NCBI GenBank assembly: GCA_043799385.1
Contig: JAZDNV010000001.1
Coordinates: forward strand, 102,250-166,249
Reading direction: 5' to 3'
DNA from: Candidatus Aenigmatarchaeota archaeon
GTDB taxonomy: Archaea; Aenigmatarchaeota; Aenigmatarchaeia; GW2011-AR5
Length of the DNA stretch: 64,000 nucleotides
Position 1 is the first letter of the stretch; each line of letters starts with the position of its first letter. Below are positions 48,001-54,000 of the stretch, piece by piece. Made by a program: the position numbers.

Positions 48001-51000
48001 ATTACCATGTCGCTGTTTTCCGGATAAAAGACATATGATATGTTATAGTCAATAAAGTCCTCTGCAGTCGTTTTGTTAATGAACTCGAAAAAGACTATGC
48101 TATACGCATATCTATCGAATTTATACGAGTTGCACTGGCTGTTCGGTGTTAGGAATACTGCGTCTTTTTCCGTATTGCTCTTTATCCAGTTGAAATCATC
48201 CTCGTATTTATTCCACATGTCATTGGCGACAAAGGCTTTACCGAACTCGCCGGAAACGAAGATTATCGCAGATATCGCTATGAGTGCAACTACAGTCCTT
48301 TTATTTACGAATCTTTCAATTCCGAGTGCCCAGTATACAGCAAAAAATGTCATGGCAGGCAGTATGTACCTGATTATGAAGAGGTTGATTGTGAATGAAA
48401 TAAGGAGATTGAATATGAGAAATGAAATGAGGAGTATGTTTATCACATCAAAACCGAAGCTTCTCTTAACATTTCTCAACCCGACAAGGAAAAAGAAGAA
48501 AAATACCGCTGTCGCTGCTAGCCAGATTAAAGCCATGTATGGATTCAGGATTGTCAGATTATCAATATTTCCGTTTGGAACCCCGAATAAAGATAGGTAG
48601 AACGATGTCGAAAGGCTGGAAATATCAGCATTCAATTGGCCGAAGCCTAACTCAGATGTGGAGAAATCTTGGTAACCGCCAAATAGATTGTTGAAGTACG
48701 GCCAGATGGGATTGCCAAGATACATCCAGTCTCTCAAATACCAGGGCGATGCTATTGCAAATGCGACGATAATGAATATTGCCGATTTCTTTAGGAAATC
48801 TTTCCTTGTTTTTGTGAATATGATATAGAGGATGACCGGCAGCATGAAGAATGCGCTGACCTTTGCCAGAAGCGCCAATCCGGCTAATGCAGATGATAAA
48901 ATCAGGCGATCTTCAAGCATGTAATAGATGCTTGCCAAAACAAAAAACGCAAGCGTTGTATCGACATATCCAATAGAGCTTTCATACATATGCCCTGGTA
49001 TGAACGCCAGGAATACGGTGCTGTAGAATGCAGTTTTTGAGTTGAACAATTTTTTAACCAGCAGGAATGAATACAACAAAAACAAGCTGCCGAAAATAGG
49101 AGAGATGAGTTTTAGCGATATATCGCTAATCAGCCAATTGAAAGACAGGTAGCTTGCTGCTGTGAACAAGTGAAACAACGGCGGTGCCCAGAAGACGCTT
49201 CTTCCCAAAGGCTCGAACAATGGTATTGATAAATCTCTTCCAATGAATCGCGATGCAGAAAGGTGCCAGCACGCATCGCCGCTCACAGCAGAGATAACAG
49301 CCAAGGCGAATCTTATCACTATTGCCGCAAGTATTATCATCAGGGCGTATCTCGTATATTTATCTTTCACAGATTTTCTAATATCAAATCTCATTGAAAT
49401 CACTTGTCCGCATATATTATACAGTTCATGAAAAGTTCAAAATATTTTGCACGTATTTTATTTCTGTCAAATCCAGCCTCTGCGAGAATATCCATTATTT
49501 CAGAGCGGTAGTACGTTTTTTTATGCTCTTCTGCACCTTTTTTTGAGACAAGTTGCAAACTACCTAGAAATTGTATGATGAAATTTGCGATAGGCGTTGG
49601 CGTCGTGATTATCAATCGGCCGCCGCTTCTCAAGACCCTGCGGCATTCCTTCATTACATCCACTATGGTGTCTTCTTCTATATGCTCAAAGACTGCAAGC
49701 ATTGTTATGCAGTCAAAATAGTCTTGTTTGAACGGCAACCCCTTTCTTATGTCCCCTTTCATACACCTTGAATCTCTTGGCAGGTCAATGTCGATGCCAT
49801 ACTTGTCTTTGAAATCGACATGCTTCAGCAAATAACCGGAGCCGCAGCCCAAATCTAATATCCTTCCCCTGGATTCTGGCAGATATTTGTTCGTCTGACT
49901 TATTCTCATTGATCTAAGAAACGGTTCTAACAACTCGCTCATAGTTATTCAAATTTTACTCTAAATAACTTCACTTCCCCTCCCCAGTTATTTACGAACT
50001 CAAAGTTTTCGAGCCCCTGGCCGTTAAAGAAGTACATTTTAGTGAACAACGAATTCTCGAGTTCAGGCGGTATGTAAATCAGCAGTTGCCTGTCAGGCGT
50101 CAGCCATAACAGGCCCTTGATTTCAGAGTCAGGGTAAGTCTTTACAGCTCCCATGCCATCCTTTGTGACATAGAATATTTTTTCAACTGACAGGAATTGG
50201 CTGCCCTGCTGAAGATAAGGCTTTATTGTCCCATTTATTTCATATAAGACGAATGACTGCTGTTCTGCCATCGGATACGTGTAAGCTATCGCGTTCTGTG
50301 CAACTATAGGCTTTGCTTGGCTCAGGCCAAGCATGAGATAATAGTATTTCTTACCCTTTTCGGCAGGTTCCCATGTTGTGAAGTACGACCACCATACGCT
50401 CTTGCTTATTAGGTCAGATGAAGCTATGTAGTAAAGCTCATCACAACCCAGTTTCTTATACTCTTTCAAAATATCCAGCGCCAACGTCTCGTTTCCCGTG
50501 AGCAATGTTGCGGCTATGTCCTGTATTCGTGCTGTCGTGACAGTGCCGTTCGAAAACATCATAATACGGTTTATGCCGTTGTCGTATTTCTTTATCACCA
50601 TACCCGATTCGTCGCTGCTGGTGTTTCTTATCAGCAGAGCGTTCTGCGAAGCGCCATCGAAAACGACCGCTCGCTGCGCGATTCCTGTTATGAAATGCCC
50701 TGGGTCCCAGTACGTCGCAATAACTGCGCAATCCTTTGTGTTATTTCTGATCCAGTTCAATGCGTTGAACCAGTTGTCGGATAAAACGGTGCCCTGTGAT
50801 TTTGCTACGTACAACCCCGGTGAAAAGTAAAATGAGTATGTAATGGAAAATATCATGAACATCAATAAAGTAAGGTATATCTCCCTCTTTTCGATGAATT
50901 TTGTCGCGTACAATGCCCATGAAATAATTGCAATCACGAACATTACTGCAAACCACTCAAGAATTAAGACGGATGCGTTAAGCACAAAGATGAGTATCAA

Positions 51001-54000
51001 TGACAGCAGCGACAACCCGACCAATGAAAGTATTCTTTTATCCATATCAATCCTCAAGTTTTTCATTTTCAGTAATAACCCTCAGCAGTTTTGATAGCAA
51101 TATTGCTGAACCAATCGCCATTGGCGCTGAGAACAGAATCGAAAATCTTACCGCGATTATGGTCGCCAGCAACGGGCCTATGAACCATATCGAAAGTAGA
51201 ATAATCGTGTCCAAGTGCTGTTTTTTCCTGTAGTAAGAGTAGAACAAATATATCAGACAATAGAGCATGAGGAAGAATGGTGATATAATAATCGCTATCC
51301 CGCCGATGGCGCTCGTTCTTTGTATTATATTTCTTATGTCGCCGGATTCCTGCATCTCTGCGACCGAAACGTAAACGTTAGGGAATTCGCCGGCTTCGCT
51401 TTTGATGTCACCGAACGTGAACGGTCCCTGCACGGTTGAAACGATGTGACTCACCCCCAATATAGGTACGGTCATGCAGAAATACGTGATAGCCATTATG
51501 ACGAACATCAATAAAATACATTTTGAATTGTGAATGAATTCTTTCCTTGACTGCAAATAATTCGTTATTAACTTCAGAACTAAGAAGCCTGTTATCAGCC
51601 ATACTACGTACCACCAACCTGCCCATGAATATGCCCAGATCCCCAGGAATATTCCGGTAAGAACAGAATACATAACTGCTTTTTTATCAAGAACTTTTTT
51701 CAGGTCTATGTATTTGTATGTAATCAGGAATAACGCGATTACGATTAATGGCAGTAAAAGTGTGAAAGCATCCGAGTCTGGATCGCCGCCCAGCGTTCGG
51801 CTCATTACGGCAACGTCAAAGACGATGAAGAAAGCGGCTATGATGCCTGCTCGCTTGTCGTAGAGAATCTTTCCGATAAAATACATTGGTATTGCCATCA
51901 GCGAAGCCAGCAATGCCGGAAGATATATCAGGTACTGCCACAGCTCAAGGTTAGGCATGAAAGATTTGAACAACATGTAGCCCCATGCGCCAAGGTATTG
52001 GTAGAAGAACGGATAATTGGTTGGAACTGGATGGCCGTATGGTGCCTGGTCAAGATAGTCGTAATTTGGCATCAAGCCGTTGTTGTCGATTATCATGTTC
52101 ATCTGCTTCATAAACGCGTATGAATCTATGTTGCGCAGGTACGGCCATCGGTAATCTATCGTCCTCACGTACATGCCCAGGAATATTATGAGCACTACAA
52201 TGATTATTGCCCAATACCTTACCAAGAAATTTTTCAAATCCACAGCATCACTTCGGATTCAGATTGAATGTATTTATGTAAAGGTCTTCATTGCCATGCC
52301 TTACTGTAAATAGAATGAACAAAACTATAAAAACTGTATAAATCAGATTTATGTGCATTTTGTACTTACCTTCACTAAGCTTTGCTACCATCATGAATGC
52401 AGGAAACAGGACTAAAACGAATCTTGGTATGCCGAACAGCAGAGACGTAGATATGGGAAGAATAAGACTCAGCACAGAATAAATACCGTACTCTTTTTTG
52501 ATGTGCCTTAATGACAGCAAGGACAGTGCGATGAATGCTGCAGCTACGGCTATGTCAAAAAAGTAATAGATTGTCCCGCCAAAAGTCTTTGATGTTATTC
52601 CCATGTAGAACGTGTTTATGAATGCTACCCATGGCAATGCAAGCTCCCGTGCAAACCCCTGCTGGGCCTTGAACATCATGAACGCATCGCCTATGGAAAA
52701 ATAATGGTATGCCATTATCGTAAGTATGCCTAAAGGTATCAGTAATATGAAAAGAACGTTCGGACTTATCCTGAATTTCTTCTCGCGAAGGTAGATGTAC
52801 AATATCGGTAAAAGCAGGATTACGCCTTGCGATCTCGTCAGTGATGCAAAAAACCCGGCGATTCCCGAATGCATGTATTTCCCCTCTTGTGCAAACCAGA
52901 AGCAGGCCAATGACAAGAACAGAAACAACGACTCTGTGTACGCTGCCGTGAAGAAATAGGCAGTCGGGAATAGCAAAAGATAGAAAACGGTCTTATACGC
53001 CATTTTACCATTCATCTCCTTCTTGACTAGCAGATAAAGCATTGTCACCGCAAGGAATGAGAATATGTTTGATATGAGAAAGGCGGCAATATCATAACCA
53101 AGAAAACCGATTGCCTTTATCATCAGCGGATAGAGAGGATACCAAGCGTAGTTGCCCATACCTTCATTGAAGTTGGGATTATAGCCGTTTTTTGCTATAT
53201 CCAGGTACGCTCCTGCGTCTGACTGCATCCACGGATTAAGGAACAGACTATCACTGCGGATCTGACGGTGCGTGAGTTCGATTGGTATAAGCTGGCTGAA
53301 AATACCGACAACAAGCAAAACAATCTTGATGAGCAGAAAGATTGCCACCACTCTTTTATAGAACCCATCTTTCCACAATGTTCTGAATTTATTCATCATA
53401 ACTAAATCTATTTTTTTGTTAAGCTTTTATTCATTGTGTTTAAAATGATTCTATGAAGTACAGGGAGCAATGGGATGACCATTGGAAAAAGCTTGACAAG
53501 TCATTCTTTGGAAGACTAACGGAATTCCATAGAAAGATTATAATATCCAAGGCAGTCAGCTACTACATGGACAGGTATTTTCCAGACAAAGGCACATTCG
53601 TTGAGTGCGGTTCTGGAACTTCGCAGACATCCATAAAAATAAACAAAAGAAAAAGAAGACTAATTGCATTGGACATATCGTCTCAGGCGCTCAACGAAGC
53701 CAGAAACGTCAAAAAGATAGACCACTTCATCAAGGCTGATATATTTCGCCTGCCGTTCAAAGACGATTGCATAGACGGCATATGGAACCTTGGCGTTATG
53801 GAACACTTTAGCAAATCTGAAATAAGCCATGTACTCAGCGAGTTCTACCGAGTAATGAAAGACGGTTCGCATATAATCCTTTTCTGGCCGCCCATGCACG
53901 GCTCGTCGCAGATAGCGCTGAGGCCGGTTGAAAAATTCTTCAACATGCTCAAAAAGGAAAAGTTTCAGTTCTTTCCAGGCGAGATAAGCAAACCGAAATC

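Follow-up and report, generated by a model that had tools for sequence, protein, structure and literature searches.

Is the AglB/STT3 oligosaccharyltransferase of a Candidatus Aenigmatarchaeota archaeon naturally divided between two genes, and if so, do the two products make up one enzyme? The question is raised by the 64,000-nt stretch of DNA analysed in this study (the window), in which the membrane part of the protein is encoded separately from its last membrane helix and external domain:

51047..52243, minus strand, AglB N-half gene (membrane part), an ORF of 398 aa plus TGA stop, with a GTG start
49945..51045, minus strand, AglB C-half gene, an ORF of 366 aa plus stop, with its ATG at 51045-51043
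51043..51066, minus strand, junction, comprising an alternative ATG (51066-51064), an A5 run (51063-51059), an SD-like GAGG (51055-51052), the stop TGA (51049-51047), the spacer T (51046) and the ATG (51045-51043)

The ORFs and the junction sequence (...CTT GAG GAT TGA T ATG GAT AAA) agree with the survey's finding of two adjacent genes of 398 and 366 aa in different frames; the C-half frame is +1 relative to that of the N-half, and 1 nt lies between stop and start. Read from its first ATG, the C-half ORF would instead be 49945..51066 and 373 aa long. Near its start codons this genome carries the motif (A)GGTGAT, and the peak position of GAGG is -11. We consider it probable (roughly 0.8) that two cistrons of one glycosylation operon supply AglB/STT3 here as two polypeptides, which presumably form a heterodimer with a composite active site.

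The A5 run sits 10 nt ahead of the N-half stop, and a one-base assembly error that splits a normal single-chain aglB therefore had to be ruled out. Removal of one A from 51063-51059 would indeed let the N frame continue in that of the C-half, and the genome is a 786 kb draft of 31 contigs in which no bridging read or contig was found for the junction. Alternatively, programmed recoding, by a +1 frameshift or stop read-through, could join the two frames into a single-chain AglB, as the stop and start lying 1 nt apart in the window might suggest; the survey's finding had left this open. We compared the locus with its relatives. Within the order, 28 loci (the present one among them) contain both parts, and 27 of these were broken in the same loop, the sole fused one being L030; the break thus recurs in 26 of 27 related loci with differing junction sequences, stops, frames and spacings. 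All three stop codons occur at the 27 split loci (TGA in 11, TAA in 11 and TAG in 5), and the C frame relative to the N frame is 0 in 4, +1 in 14 and +2 in 9. The C-half starts between -4 and +13 nt from the N-half stop in 23 of the 27, with a full range of -4 to +103 nt. Against recoding, neither a conserved frame relation nor a conserved slippery site was seen at these junctions, and spacers reach 103 nt. Four loci have both halves in the same frame, separated by a stop only (TAA ATG in L006, L012 and L017), and low-level read-through is possible there.

SD-like words of at least 4 nt precede the C-half start in 23 of the 27 loci, compared with 26% at random positions, and words of at least 5 nt in 11 of 27, compared with 3.8%; C-half start codons were our choice in these counts, namely the earliest ATG in the stretch that begins 25 nt ahead of the N-half stop. 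Start codons with such words ahead of them are not what an assembly error would produce.

In some species the two halves are also separated in the genome. A whole methyltransferase gene (Methyltransf_11) lies between the N- and C-half in L067, L073 and L113, and 4 loci of a 74-locus survey had no N-half within ~3 kb upstream of the C-half. In three genomes (G055, G091 and G161) the C-half comes immediately after an Obg-like GTPase gene, and a different contig carries the N-half, the placing of both contigs in one genome resting on binning; the order in G127 is GTPase, N-half, C-half. The unlinked N-half of G055 scores 128.5 bits with PF02516. Each part thus comes with a stop, a start and a ribosome-binding signal of its own and can be separated from the other in the genome. 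Because stop codon, frame and spacing vary and the halves can be separated by a gene or lie on other contigs, we exclude both of these explanations: recoding is very improbable, and an assembly error is hardly credible. The constant break point, together with variable junctions and separated halves, supports the survey's reading of a natural two-gene split.

A wider survey, in which all genomes were metagenome-assembled or single-cell assemblies, found 66 of 74 evaluable loci split, the fused ones being 3 from Aenigmatarchaeota and 5 from Methanobacteriota. The earlier count of relatives, in which the C-half mostly stood alone, was reproduced in a larger sample. The split had been described as conserved in this archaeal order; this holds for 27 of 28 loci, but the split is not limited to one order, since it also occurs in family f13 of another order and in one genome of family f23. 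The further breaks that had been reported in some relatives proved to be contig ends or split alignments, with no additional gene breaks.

Could the split be a sign of decay, with N-glycosylation being lost in reduced genomes? The genomes are small (0.5-1.2 Mb), and single genomes of other families (G131 and G152) have breaks at other positions. However, both halves are intact across dozens of species and free of internal stops. Pairwise dN/dS is 0.05-0.15 in both halves, rough values because dS is near saturation, and invariant columns number 36 in the N-half and 40 in the C-half, with all the motifs and the catalytic residues among them. A decaying gene is accordingly an explanation to which we give next to no weight. 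The split is real, old and conserved, and both halves are under selection.

We then asked which parts of a known enzyme the two proteins represent. The elements that could be placed are as follows:

52124..52126, minus strand, D40 codon (in YLRNIDSY), first DXD-type acidic residue, external loop 1, invariant in 17/17 N-halves
51770..51790, minus strand, GGDPDSD codons, residues 152-158, with D156 and D158 as the second DXD motif
51356..51367, minus strand, S293-V-A-E296 codons, TIXE/SVSE-type motif, external loop 5 (EL5)
51146..51148, minus strand, R366 codon (in AVRF), invariant in N-halves
50824..50883, minus strand, helix of approximately residues 55-74 (hydrophobic segment 56-74), counterpart of the last (13th) AglB membrane helix
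50698..50712, minus strand, Y112-W-D-P-G116 codons, WWDXG position, invariant in 27/27 C-halves

Pfam STT3 (PF02516) matches the N-half only (E 4e-30, 106 bits, cut-off 24.5), over model positions 4-374 of 405. A profile built from 17 N-halves aligned to residues 3-274 and 383-448 of A. fulgidus AglB (AfAglB) with E 4e-21. In profile alignments D40 falls on the Asp of LGGNDPW, which is Asp47 of AfAglB, the first DXD-type acidic residue as described in PMC8342417. G153, D154, P155, D156 and D158 are invariant among the 17 N-halves, and D156-S-D158 aligns to D161-H-H163 of AfAglB (second DXD, external loop 2). SVAE was assigned to EL5 by motif and position, HMMER having given no alignment to Glu360; P288, N289, V290, S293 and E296 are invariant in the N-halves, and VSVAE or close variants occur in 69 of 72 ORFs matched by the N profile. 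Three hydrophobic segments, the last of the N-half, follow this motif. R366, with positions counted along the N-profile alignment, corresponds to Arg426 of AfAglB, which PMC8342417 places near the phosphate site.

The 366-aa C-half protein matched no Pfam family at E <= 0.01 and reached no curated family threshold, and its 238 near-length homologues are for the most part entries labelled 'hypothetical protein' from Candidatus Aenigmarchaeota/Aenigmatarchaeota. Compared with solved STT3 chains, it matched at residues 44-136 (best E 1e-6), a stretch that spans the last membrane helix and the WWDYG region, with ATYWDPGHFITG aligned to (S/M)WWDYGYQI; the C profile matched STT3A with E 6e-7. By hydrophobic segments and alignment, the C-half appears to have two membrane helices beyond the canonical set, followed by the last canonical one and the external domain. 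A profile of the fused family aligned residues ~55-74 to AfAglB around 468-490, directly ahead of the external domain, and shorter C-halves of 316-337 aa start immediately ahead of the last canonical helix. The cut precedes the last membrane helix, rather than falling where the membrane part meets the external domain. YWDPG aligns to WWDYG of STT3 and to AfAglB 550-554, and occurs in 73 of 80 ORFs matched by the C profile; W-D-x-G is kept and the first Trp is Tyr. Fourteen residues past YWDPG, D130 and G131 are invariant, and the sequence at this DGGK (or double-sequon) position is DGAS, without Lys. A candidate in the C-half for the DK or MI motif of the Ser/Thr pocket is (I/M)-x-D176-(I/M), within RIQDI/RMKDM. 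GGDPDSD (N-half 152-158) and ATYWDPGH (C-half 110-117), the motifs noted earlier, are both present and are invariant in relatives.

The fused-family profile matched AfAglB continuously over residues 7-516 (E 8e-39, the best solved match), PglB from end to end (E 5e-29) and STT3A/B with E 3e-34 to 1e-28. We also scored the proteins against NCBIfam TIGR04154 (archaeo_STT3, archaeosortase-A-associated AglB) and rejected membership: the N-half reached 105, the C-half 16.9 and L030 113.7 bits, against a cut-off of 450. PglB and eukaryotic STT3 share the GT-C family with the Aenigmatarchaeota pair, but the catalytic subunit of the solved PglB and STT3 chains matched is a single polypeptide. Since a one-polypeptide catalytic subunit is here replaced by the products of two genes, we file the pair as a variant of the STT3/AglB/PglB family. 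Eukaryotic oligosaccharyltransferases contain extra, unrelated subunits, while STT3 itself is unsplit.

The closest comparison is A. fulgidus AglB-L (PDB 3WAJ, 5GMY and 7E9S). The elements follow in the same order along the sequence, and the first DXD Asp, the second DXD, the Arg426 equivalent, the EL5 acidic motif and the WWDYG position are all found. According to PMC8342417, AfAglB is a single 868-residue chain that has 13 membrane helices; here there are two chains, the cut mapping to the cytoplasmic loop before its last helix (approximately residues 449-467). The motifs differ in having YWDPG for WWDYG, SVAE for TIAE and DSD for DHH; SVAE is similar to SVSE, which PMC8342417 names as the eukaryotic form. 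The C-subunit has a smaller external domain and two extra helices at its start.

The two proteins might still not form one enzyme. The N-half might work by itself as a GT-C transferase or hydrolase, with the C-half as an accessory or independent surface protein; alternatively, the pair could act on a substrate other than the Asn of N-X-S/T. YWDPG in place of WWDXG and DGAS in place of DGGK would fit such a view, as would the occasional unlinked halves and the short single-chain STT3-like GT-C paralogues without a WWD motif (474-496 aa) in these genomes. On the other hand, nearly every genome has both genes side by side, with N ahead of C, and the split forms have natural fusions, which carry the same motifs, nested among them. 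In solved oligosaccharyltransferases, as PMC8342417 presents them, the WWD sequon pocket and the catalytic acids lie on the parts that are separate chains here; neither half has the full site. We regard both versions of this view as unlikely.

In a tree from a quick search with the C-part only, fused forms are interspersed with split ones, no fewer than six split/fused changes are needed, and fused forms lie within the split clade in at least 5 places. A tree that groups all split forms together was rejected (p-AU 1.8e-80), the tested group having been named after the tree was seen. The interleaving implies that the loop tolerates both states. It is an even call whether this is a heterodimeric N-oligosaccharyltransferase that arose by one fission before at least two Aenigmatarchaeota orders diverged, was kept in dozens of species while gene order loosened, and was re-fused at least 5 times.

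A literature search found no paper describing a split STT3, AglB or PglB. The reduced genomes of Nanoarchaeum equitans and other DPANN archaea divide single-chain enzymes between two genes, which are sometimes unlinked; to our knowledge, no report counts AglB among these. In the one paper found that speaks of split genes, Nanoarchaeum and oligosaccharyl, 'split' refers to Alg13/14. Alg13/Alg14 and EpsE/EpsF, as compared with the fused MurG-like Agl24, show a split between membrane side and catalytic side with repeated re-fusions (PMC8993221, PMC4973528). The likeness is that of a glycosyltransferase of the same pathway occurring in split and fused forms, which interleave in aglB as well. Alg13/Alg14-type enzymes, however, have a GT-B fold, act at a different pathway step and have a membrane anchor parted from a soluble domain, whereas in aglB the cut falls between two membrane helices of an integral membrane GT-C enzyme.

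Applied to the window, the two-subunit reading suggests the following arrangement. The N-subunit (398 aa) would be the membrane core, with D40, D156/D158, E296 and R366 as its metal- and substrate-activating residues. The C-subunit (366 aa) would start in the cytoplasm, cross the membrane by two lineage-specific helices and the canonical last helix, and expose outside the cell a globular domain that bears YWDPG; known enzymes use this motif to form the pocket that receives the Ser/Thr of the N-X-S/T sequon. The break would lie in the cytoplasmic loop between the penultimate and last helix. The ribosome-binding site of the C-subunit appears to be written into the final codons of the N-subunit gene, and translation of the two subunits is probably coupled. 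Because both halves carry catalytic motifs, a composite active site would follow if the subunits assemble in the membrane without a covalent link, as we infer.

If so, the covalent link between the last two STT3-type membrane helices would be dispensable and the sequon-binding subunit a separable module. The free cytoplasmic N-terminus of the C-subunit would have gained extra pairs of membrane helices (1, 3, or 5 and more), which might serve as a new interface joining the two subunits. The break would also mark a natural place where oligosaccharyltransferases can be cut.

The assembled enzyme would transfer a lipid-linked glycan to asparagine; the acceptor or donor could differ, because of the low identity to characterised AglB, YWDPG and DGAS. 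The glycan is likely to be made by the surrounding genes, identified by Pfam and listed in window order:

39736..56873, minus strand, glycan-synthesis cluster around the aglB pair
beginning with Polysacc_synt_2, cytidylyltransferase, deacetylase, GFO oxidoreductase, DegT aminotransferase and B12/radical SAM genes
46450-47916, Polysacc_synt flippase-like gene
47913-49403, PMT_2 GT-C gene
49400-49942, methyltransferase gene
the two AglB genes
52248-53399, GT-C gene
ending with two GT2 genes and a B12/radical SAM gene

Gene spacings around the AglB pair are 4, 1 and 2 nt. The N-half gene had been called the only STT3 homologue of the genome, which is nearly the case: when all six frames of the 786-kb genome were searched with PF02516, this gene scored 107 bits and there was one weak second match (25.3 bits), which is the neighbouring 496-aa GT-C gene at 47913-49403 (Pfam PMT_2).

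The AglB homologue of the window is encoded by two open frames:

51047..52243, minus strand, open frame of the N-half, 398 aa
49945..51066, minus strand, open frame of the C-half, 373 aa from its first ATG or 366 aa from the ATG at 51045

At the junction, CTT GAG GAT TGA T ATG, 1 nt separates the N-half stop from the C-half start chosen previously, and the C-half frame is +1 relative to that of the N-half. These frames and the junction read confirm the survey's finding of a split into two genes, with stop and start 1 nt apart in different frames. Pfam STT3 (PF02516) matched the N-half protein only (E 4e-30, model positions 4-374 of 405). 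For the C-half protein, solved STT3 chains gave a match (E 1e-6) that spans the last membrane helix and the WWDYG region, with YWDPG aligned to WWDYG. The pair had also been described as the sole STT3 homologue. Other clear STT3 genes are indeed absent from the genome (786 kb in 31 contigs, 91% complete), but one further PF02516 match of 25 bits falls on an adjacent 496-aa GT-C gene (Pfam: PMT_2).

With an A5 run shortly before the stop, an assembly error was conceivable, and comparison with relatives was therefore the decisive test. Public reads and contigs matched to the window yielded small contig pieces, none of which bridged the junction (word shares ≤0.10). One 239-nt contig from an RNA library was identical over 50498-50733 inside the C-half; since such libraries can contain DNA and word shares were low, we deduced neither expression nor habitat from this material.

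The C-half was present in 38 of the 41 genomes of the window's order (own genome included) and the N-half in 36. C-half open frames uncut by a contig end measured 285-522 aa, with a single exception of 726 aa (genome G030), in line with the earlier claim that this half stands alone in most relatives. We fetched 30 loci, two of which end before the upstream gene becomes visible, leaving 28 to be judged. At 27 of these, the N-half (consensus ...EDKxxxD) terminates at the homologous position and a C-half start follows; the other locus (L030) is fused. Among the 27 split loci the stop was TGA (11), TAA (11) or TAG (5), and the C-half was in frame with the N-half in 4, shifted by +1 in 14 and by +2 in 9. 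Stop and ATG, with the C-half start in relatives chosen by us, lay -4 to +13 nt apart in 23 loci and 58-103 nt apart in 4. Because of this variety in stop, frame and distance, no single sequencing or assembly error splitting a normal aglB fits the data, and the homologous position of the cut agrees with the original view that it is not a sequencing break. Nor does the variety fit a programmed frameshift or read-through joining both frames, a possibility that had been left standing.

The 'further breaks' noted before in some relatives were not genuine. Five (G010, G013, G029, G031, G037) were rejected as two alignment pieces inside one open frame, one (G014) as a gene cut by contig ends and one (G119) as located at a contig end. 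In two genomes, G131 (locus L052) and G152 (L053), aglB is broken elsewhere, within the membrane part before or around external loop 5 (EL5), each break occurring in one genome. Both belong to families with fused aglB. Their breaks, at positions distinct from the conserved cut, probably reflect frameshifts or assembly errors. We also rejected the pair as a duplication, since an hhalign comparison of the N and C profiles found the two unrelated.

In a wider scan, the C-half alignment was run against one genome per species; the collection was the one used for the relatives above, so the sets overlap. This gave 79 loci, mostly from Candidatus Aenigmatarchaeota assemblies, of which 74 can be judged. 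The N-half lies upstream in its own separate open frame at 62 of them and is absent within ~3 kb upstream at 4; the remaining 8 are fused (3 in Aenigmatarchaeota and 5 in Methanobacteriota, the latter at 26-28% identity). Three of the 62 (L067, L073, L113) carry a complete 220-aa methyltransferase gene (Methyltransf_11, E 2e-21) between the halves on the same strand. This gene is alike in type to the one at 49400-49942, directly after the window's C-half, and the position of the methyltransferase relative to the pair thus varies.

Family f13, of another order, provides a further arrangement. G127 has an Obg-like GTPase gene, then the N-half, then the C-half. G055, G091 and G161 have the C-half directly after the same GTPase gene, and the N-half on another contig. 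The N-half of G055 (414 aa, full STT3 match) is flanked by a DegT aminotransferase gene on one side and an AAA_14/DUF4143 gene on the other, and those of G161 and G091 are cut by contig ends. All genomes compared here are metagenome-derived; provided that these contigs were binned correctly, f13 shows that the N-half gene was relocated with both genes intact, and hence that two separately translated proteins are made. On contig C19 of G055 (L040 4016-4114, L045 352-462), a stretch of ~110 nt beyond the AAA_14/DUF4143 gene repeats the N-half's 3' end (67% protein identity), as though the AAA_14/DUF4143 gene had been inserted with target duplication.

The SSU (16S) rRNA gene was not found in the window's own assembly (RF01959), which left the anti-Shine-Dalgarno (anti-SD) sequence unreadable, and 663 long ORFs were therefore used to establish the start-proximal motif. 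In the 20 nt ahead of these ORFs, GTGAT is 9 times commoner than further upstream; the motif is GGTGAT at -9 (GGTGA peaks at -9, GAGG at -11). An SD-consensus word of at least 4 nt precedes the C-half start at 23 of the 27 split loci, compared with 26% of random positions in the same loci, and one of at least 5 nt at 11 of 27 (3.8% of random positions). The SD-like word falls within the final N-half codons (window: GAG GAT; L006 and L012: GGT GAT), which may explain the conserved terminal (E/G)-D. Together with the spacing, it suggests that translation of the halves is coupled.

Across 151 genomes sampled from the phylum, short C-part frames (300-480 aa) were seen in f1, f2, f7 and f8, the families sampled from the window's order, as well as in two f13 genera; fused frames (680-875 aa) were seen in most of the other families and in a single f13 genus. 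Family f23 contributes one genome, G076, with its cut at the same loop, an ATG that overlaps the stop by 8 nt, GGGTGA in front of that ATG, and a canonical WWDQG. The split is conserved in the order (27 of 28 loci), as had been proposed, but is not confined to it. A profile search of 1.84 billion representatives gave 1973 matches, of which the best 22 were all 242-435 aa long and the first fused protein ranked 23; a homologue search by length returned 238 proteins of near length against only 6 longer ones.

We built a quick maximum-likelihood tree from 50 C-part rows (32 split, 18 fused), leaving out L023 and L029, which are cut by contig ends. One clade (SH-aLRT 89) held all split forms and six fused ones. 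The fused members were nested singly beside split ones with supports of 96-99, and the tree needs at least 6 state changes. A tree forcing all split forms together was rejected (p-AU 1.8e-80, for a group named after the tree was seen). The simplest reading is one old fission followed by at least 5 re-fusions, a direction that the fused outgroups suggest; re-fusion is easy where only a few bases separate stop and start. The ESM Atlas holds clusters of 338-414 aa carrying STT3-PglB_core and labelled Nanobdellota, Thermoproteota and Campylobacterota, which may be stand-alone C-parts in other phyla or fragments. Among 10 short representatives, several were partial or on contigs <3 kb, one clustered with an 872-aa protein, and another, of 311 aa, lay on a 43-kb Aenigmarchaeota contig; a split outside the phylum is so far not evident among these 10.

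Among 17 aligned N-halves, 36 columns are invariant, and these include D40 (YLRNIDSY), G153-D-P-D156, D158, E296 in FPNVYVSVAE and R366. Among 27 aligned C-halves, 40 columns are invariant, including Y112-W-D-P-G-H117 and D130-G131. In profile alignments to AglB of Archaeoglobus fulgidus (AfAglB), D40 falls on Asp47, D156/D158 on Asp161/His163, R366 on Arg426 and YWDPG on WWDYG 550-554. According to extracts from PMC8342417, Asp47, Asp161 and His163 are metal ligands, Glu360 of TIXE contacts the metal via water and also the sequon, Arg426 lies near the phosphate, and the Ser/Thr pocket is formed by WWDYG with DK/MI. The EL5 motif at 51356-51367 is SVAE, nearer to the SVSE assigned to Eukarya than to the TIXE of Archaea and Bacteria in those extracts. 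Pairwise dN/dS within genera was 0.05-0.15 for both halves, with dS near saturation. Judging from sequence, both halves are working genes.

The fused-family profile aligns unbroken to AfAglB 7-516. The N-half ends opposite AfAglB ~449-467; beyond it, a single further hydrophobic stretch (~468-490) precedes the external domain, whose start is given as 499 (PMC8342417). The 13 helices and external loops EL1, EL2 and EL5 described in the same extracts place the loop after helix 12 in the cytoplasm, the numbering of individual helices being provisional. Kyte-Doolittle hydropathy, too crude for helix counts before EL5, gave three hydrophobic segments after EL5 in the N-half. C-halves of 316-337 aa begin directly before the last helix; that of the window has two additional helices in front of it and some have four or more. 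The count is odd in every case, as required if the N-terminus is to be cytoplasmic and the domain external.

By sequence and motifs the pair belongs to STT3/AglB/PglB, the family that supplies the universal catalytic subunit of N-glycosylation, from which it differs by its two chains, YWDPG, DGAS and SVAE. Its substrate may differ from that of characterised AglB. We infer that the two chains would assemble, with the topology outlined here, into an active oligosaccharyltransferase. The pair falls outside NCBIfam TIGR04154, the C-half scores below every threshold of the curated family models, and nearly all named C-half homologues among the public records listed are called 'hypothetical protein'. 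Surveys of DPANN AglB would therefore see a truncated enzyme without WWDXG and could misjudge whether these archaea N-glycosylate. A split AglB, STT3 or PglB is undescribed in the full-text literature searched, a scope outside which lies the main AglB survey, Nikolayev et al. 2020, which may bear on this claim; in extracts from PMC8993221 and PMC4973528, 'split' refers to Alg13/Alg14. A lineage-wide natural two-chain form offers an evolution-tested cut site, homologous to AfAglB ~449-467, that could serve split or modular oligosaccharyltransferases in glyco-engineering, and a means of studying how the membrane core is docked by the last membrane helix and the external domain.

The pair belongs to a minus-strand cluster of closely spaced genes for sugar-nucleotide enzymes, with gaps of 4, 1 and 2 nt around it. 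The cluster also contains a flippase-like gene, two other GT-C genes, methyltransferases and two GT2 genes, a context that fits a role in protein glycosylation. Further features are:

44977-46419, minus strand, B12-binding radical SAM gene inside the glycan cluster
55491-56873, minus strand, second such gene inside the cluster
61491-63263, plus strand, 590-aa ORF downstream of SecD/SecF-like genes, without a Pfam family at E ≤0.001
47913-49403, minus strand, short single-chain STT3-like GT-C paralogue
L046 2710-4134, minus strand, and 4196-5647, plus strand, two further such paralogues

The two radical SAM genes hint at an unusual (methylated?) sugar. The window's GT-C paralogue, two genes downstream of the split pair, is the source of the weak second PF02516 match. 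These paralogues (474-496 aa) lack the WWD motif, carry an EL1-type acidic motif and have a small C-terminal part resembling the LNWIRNNT...AT stretch of the C-half.
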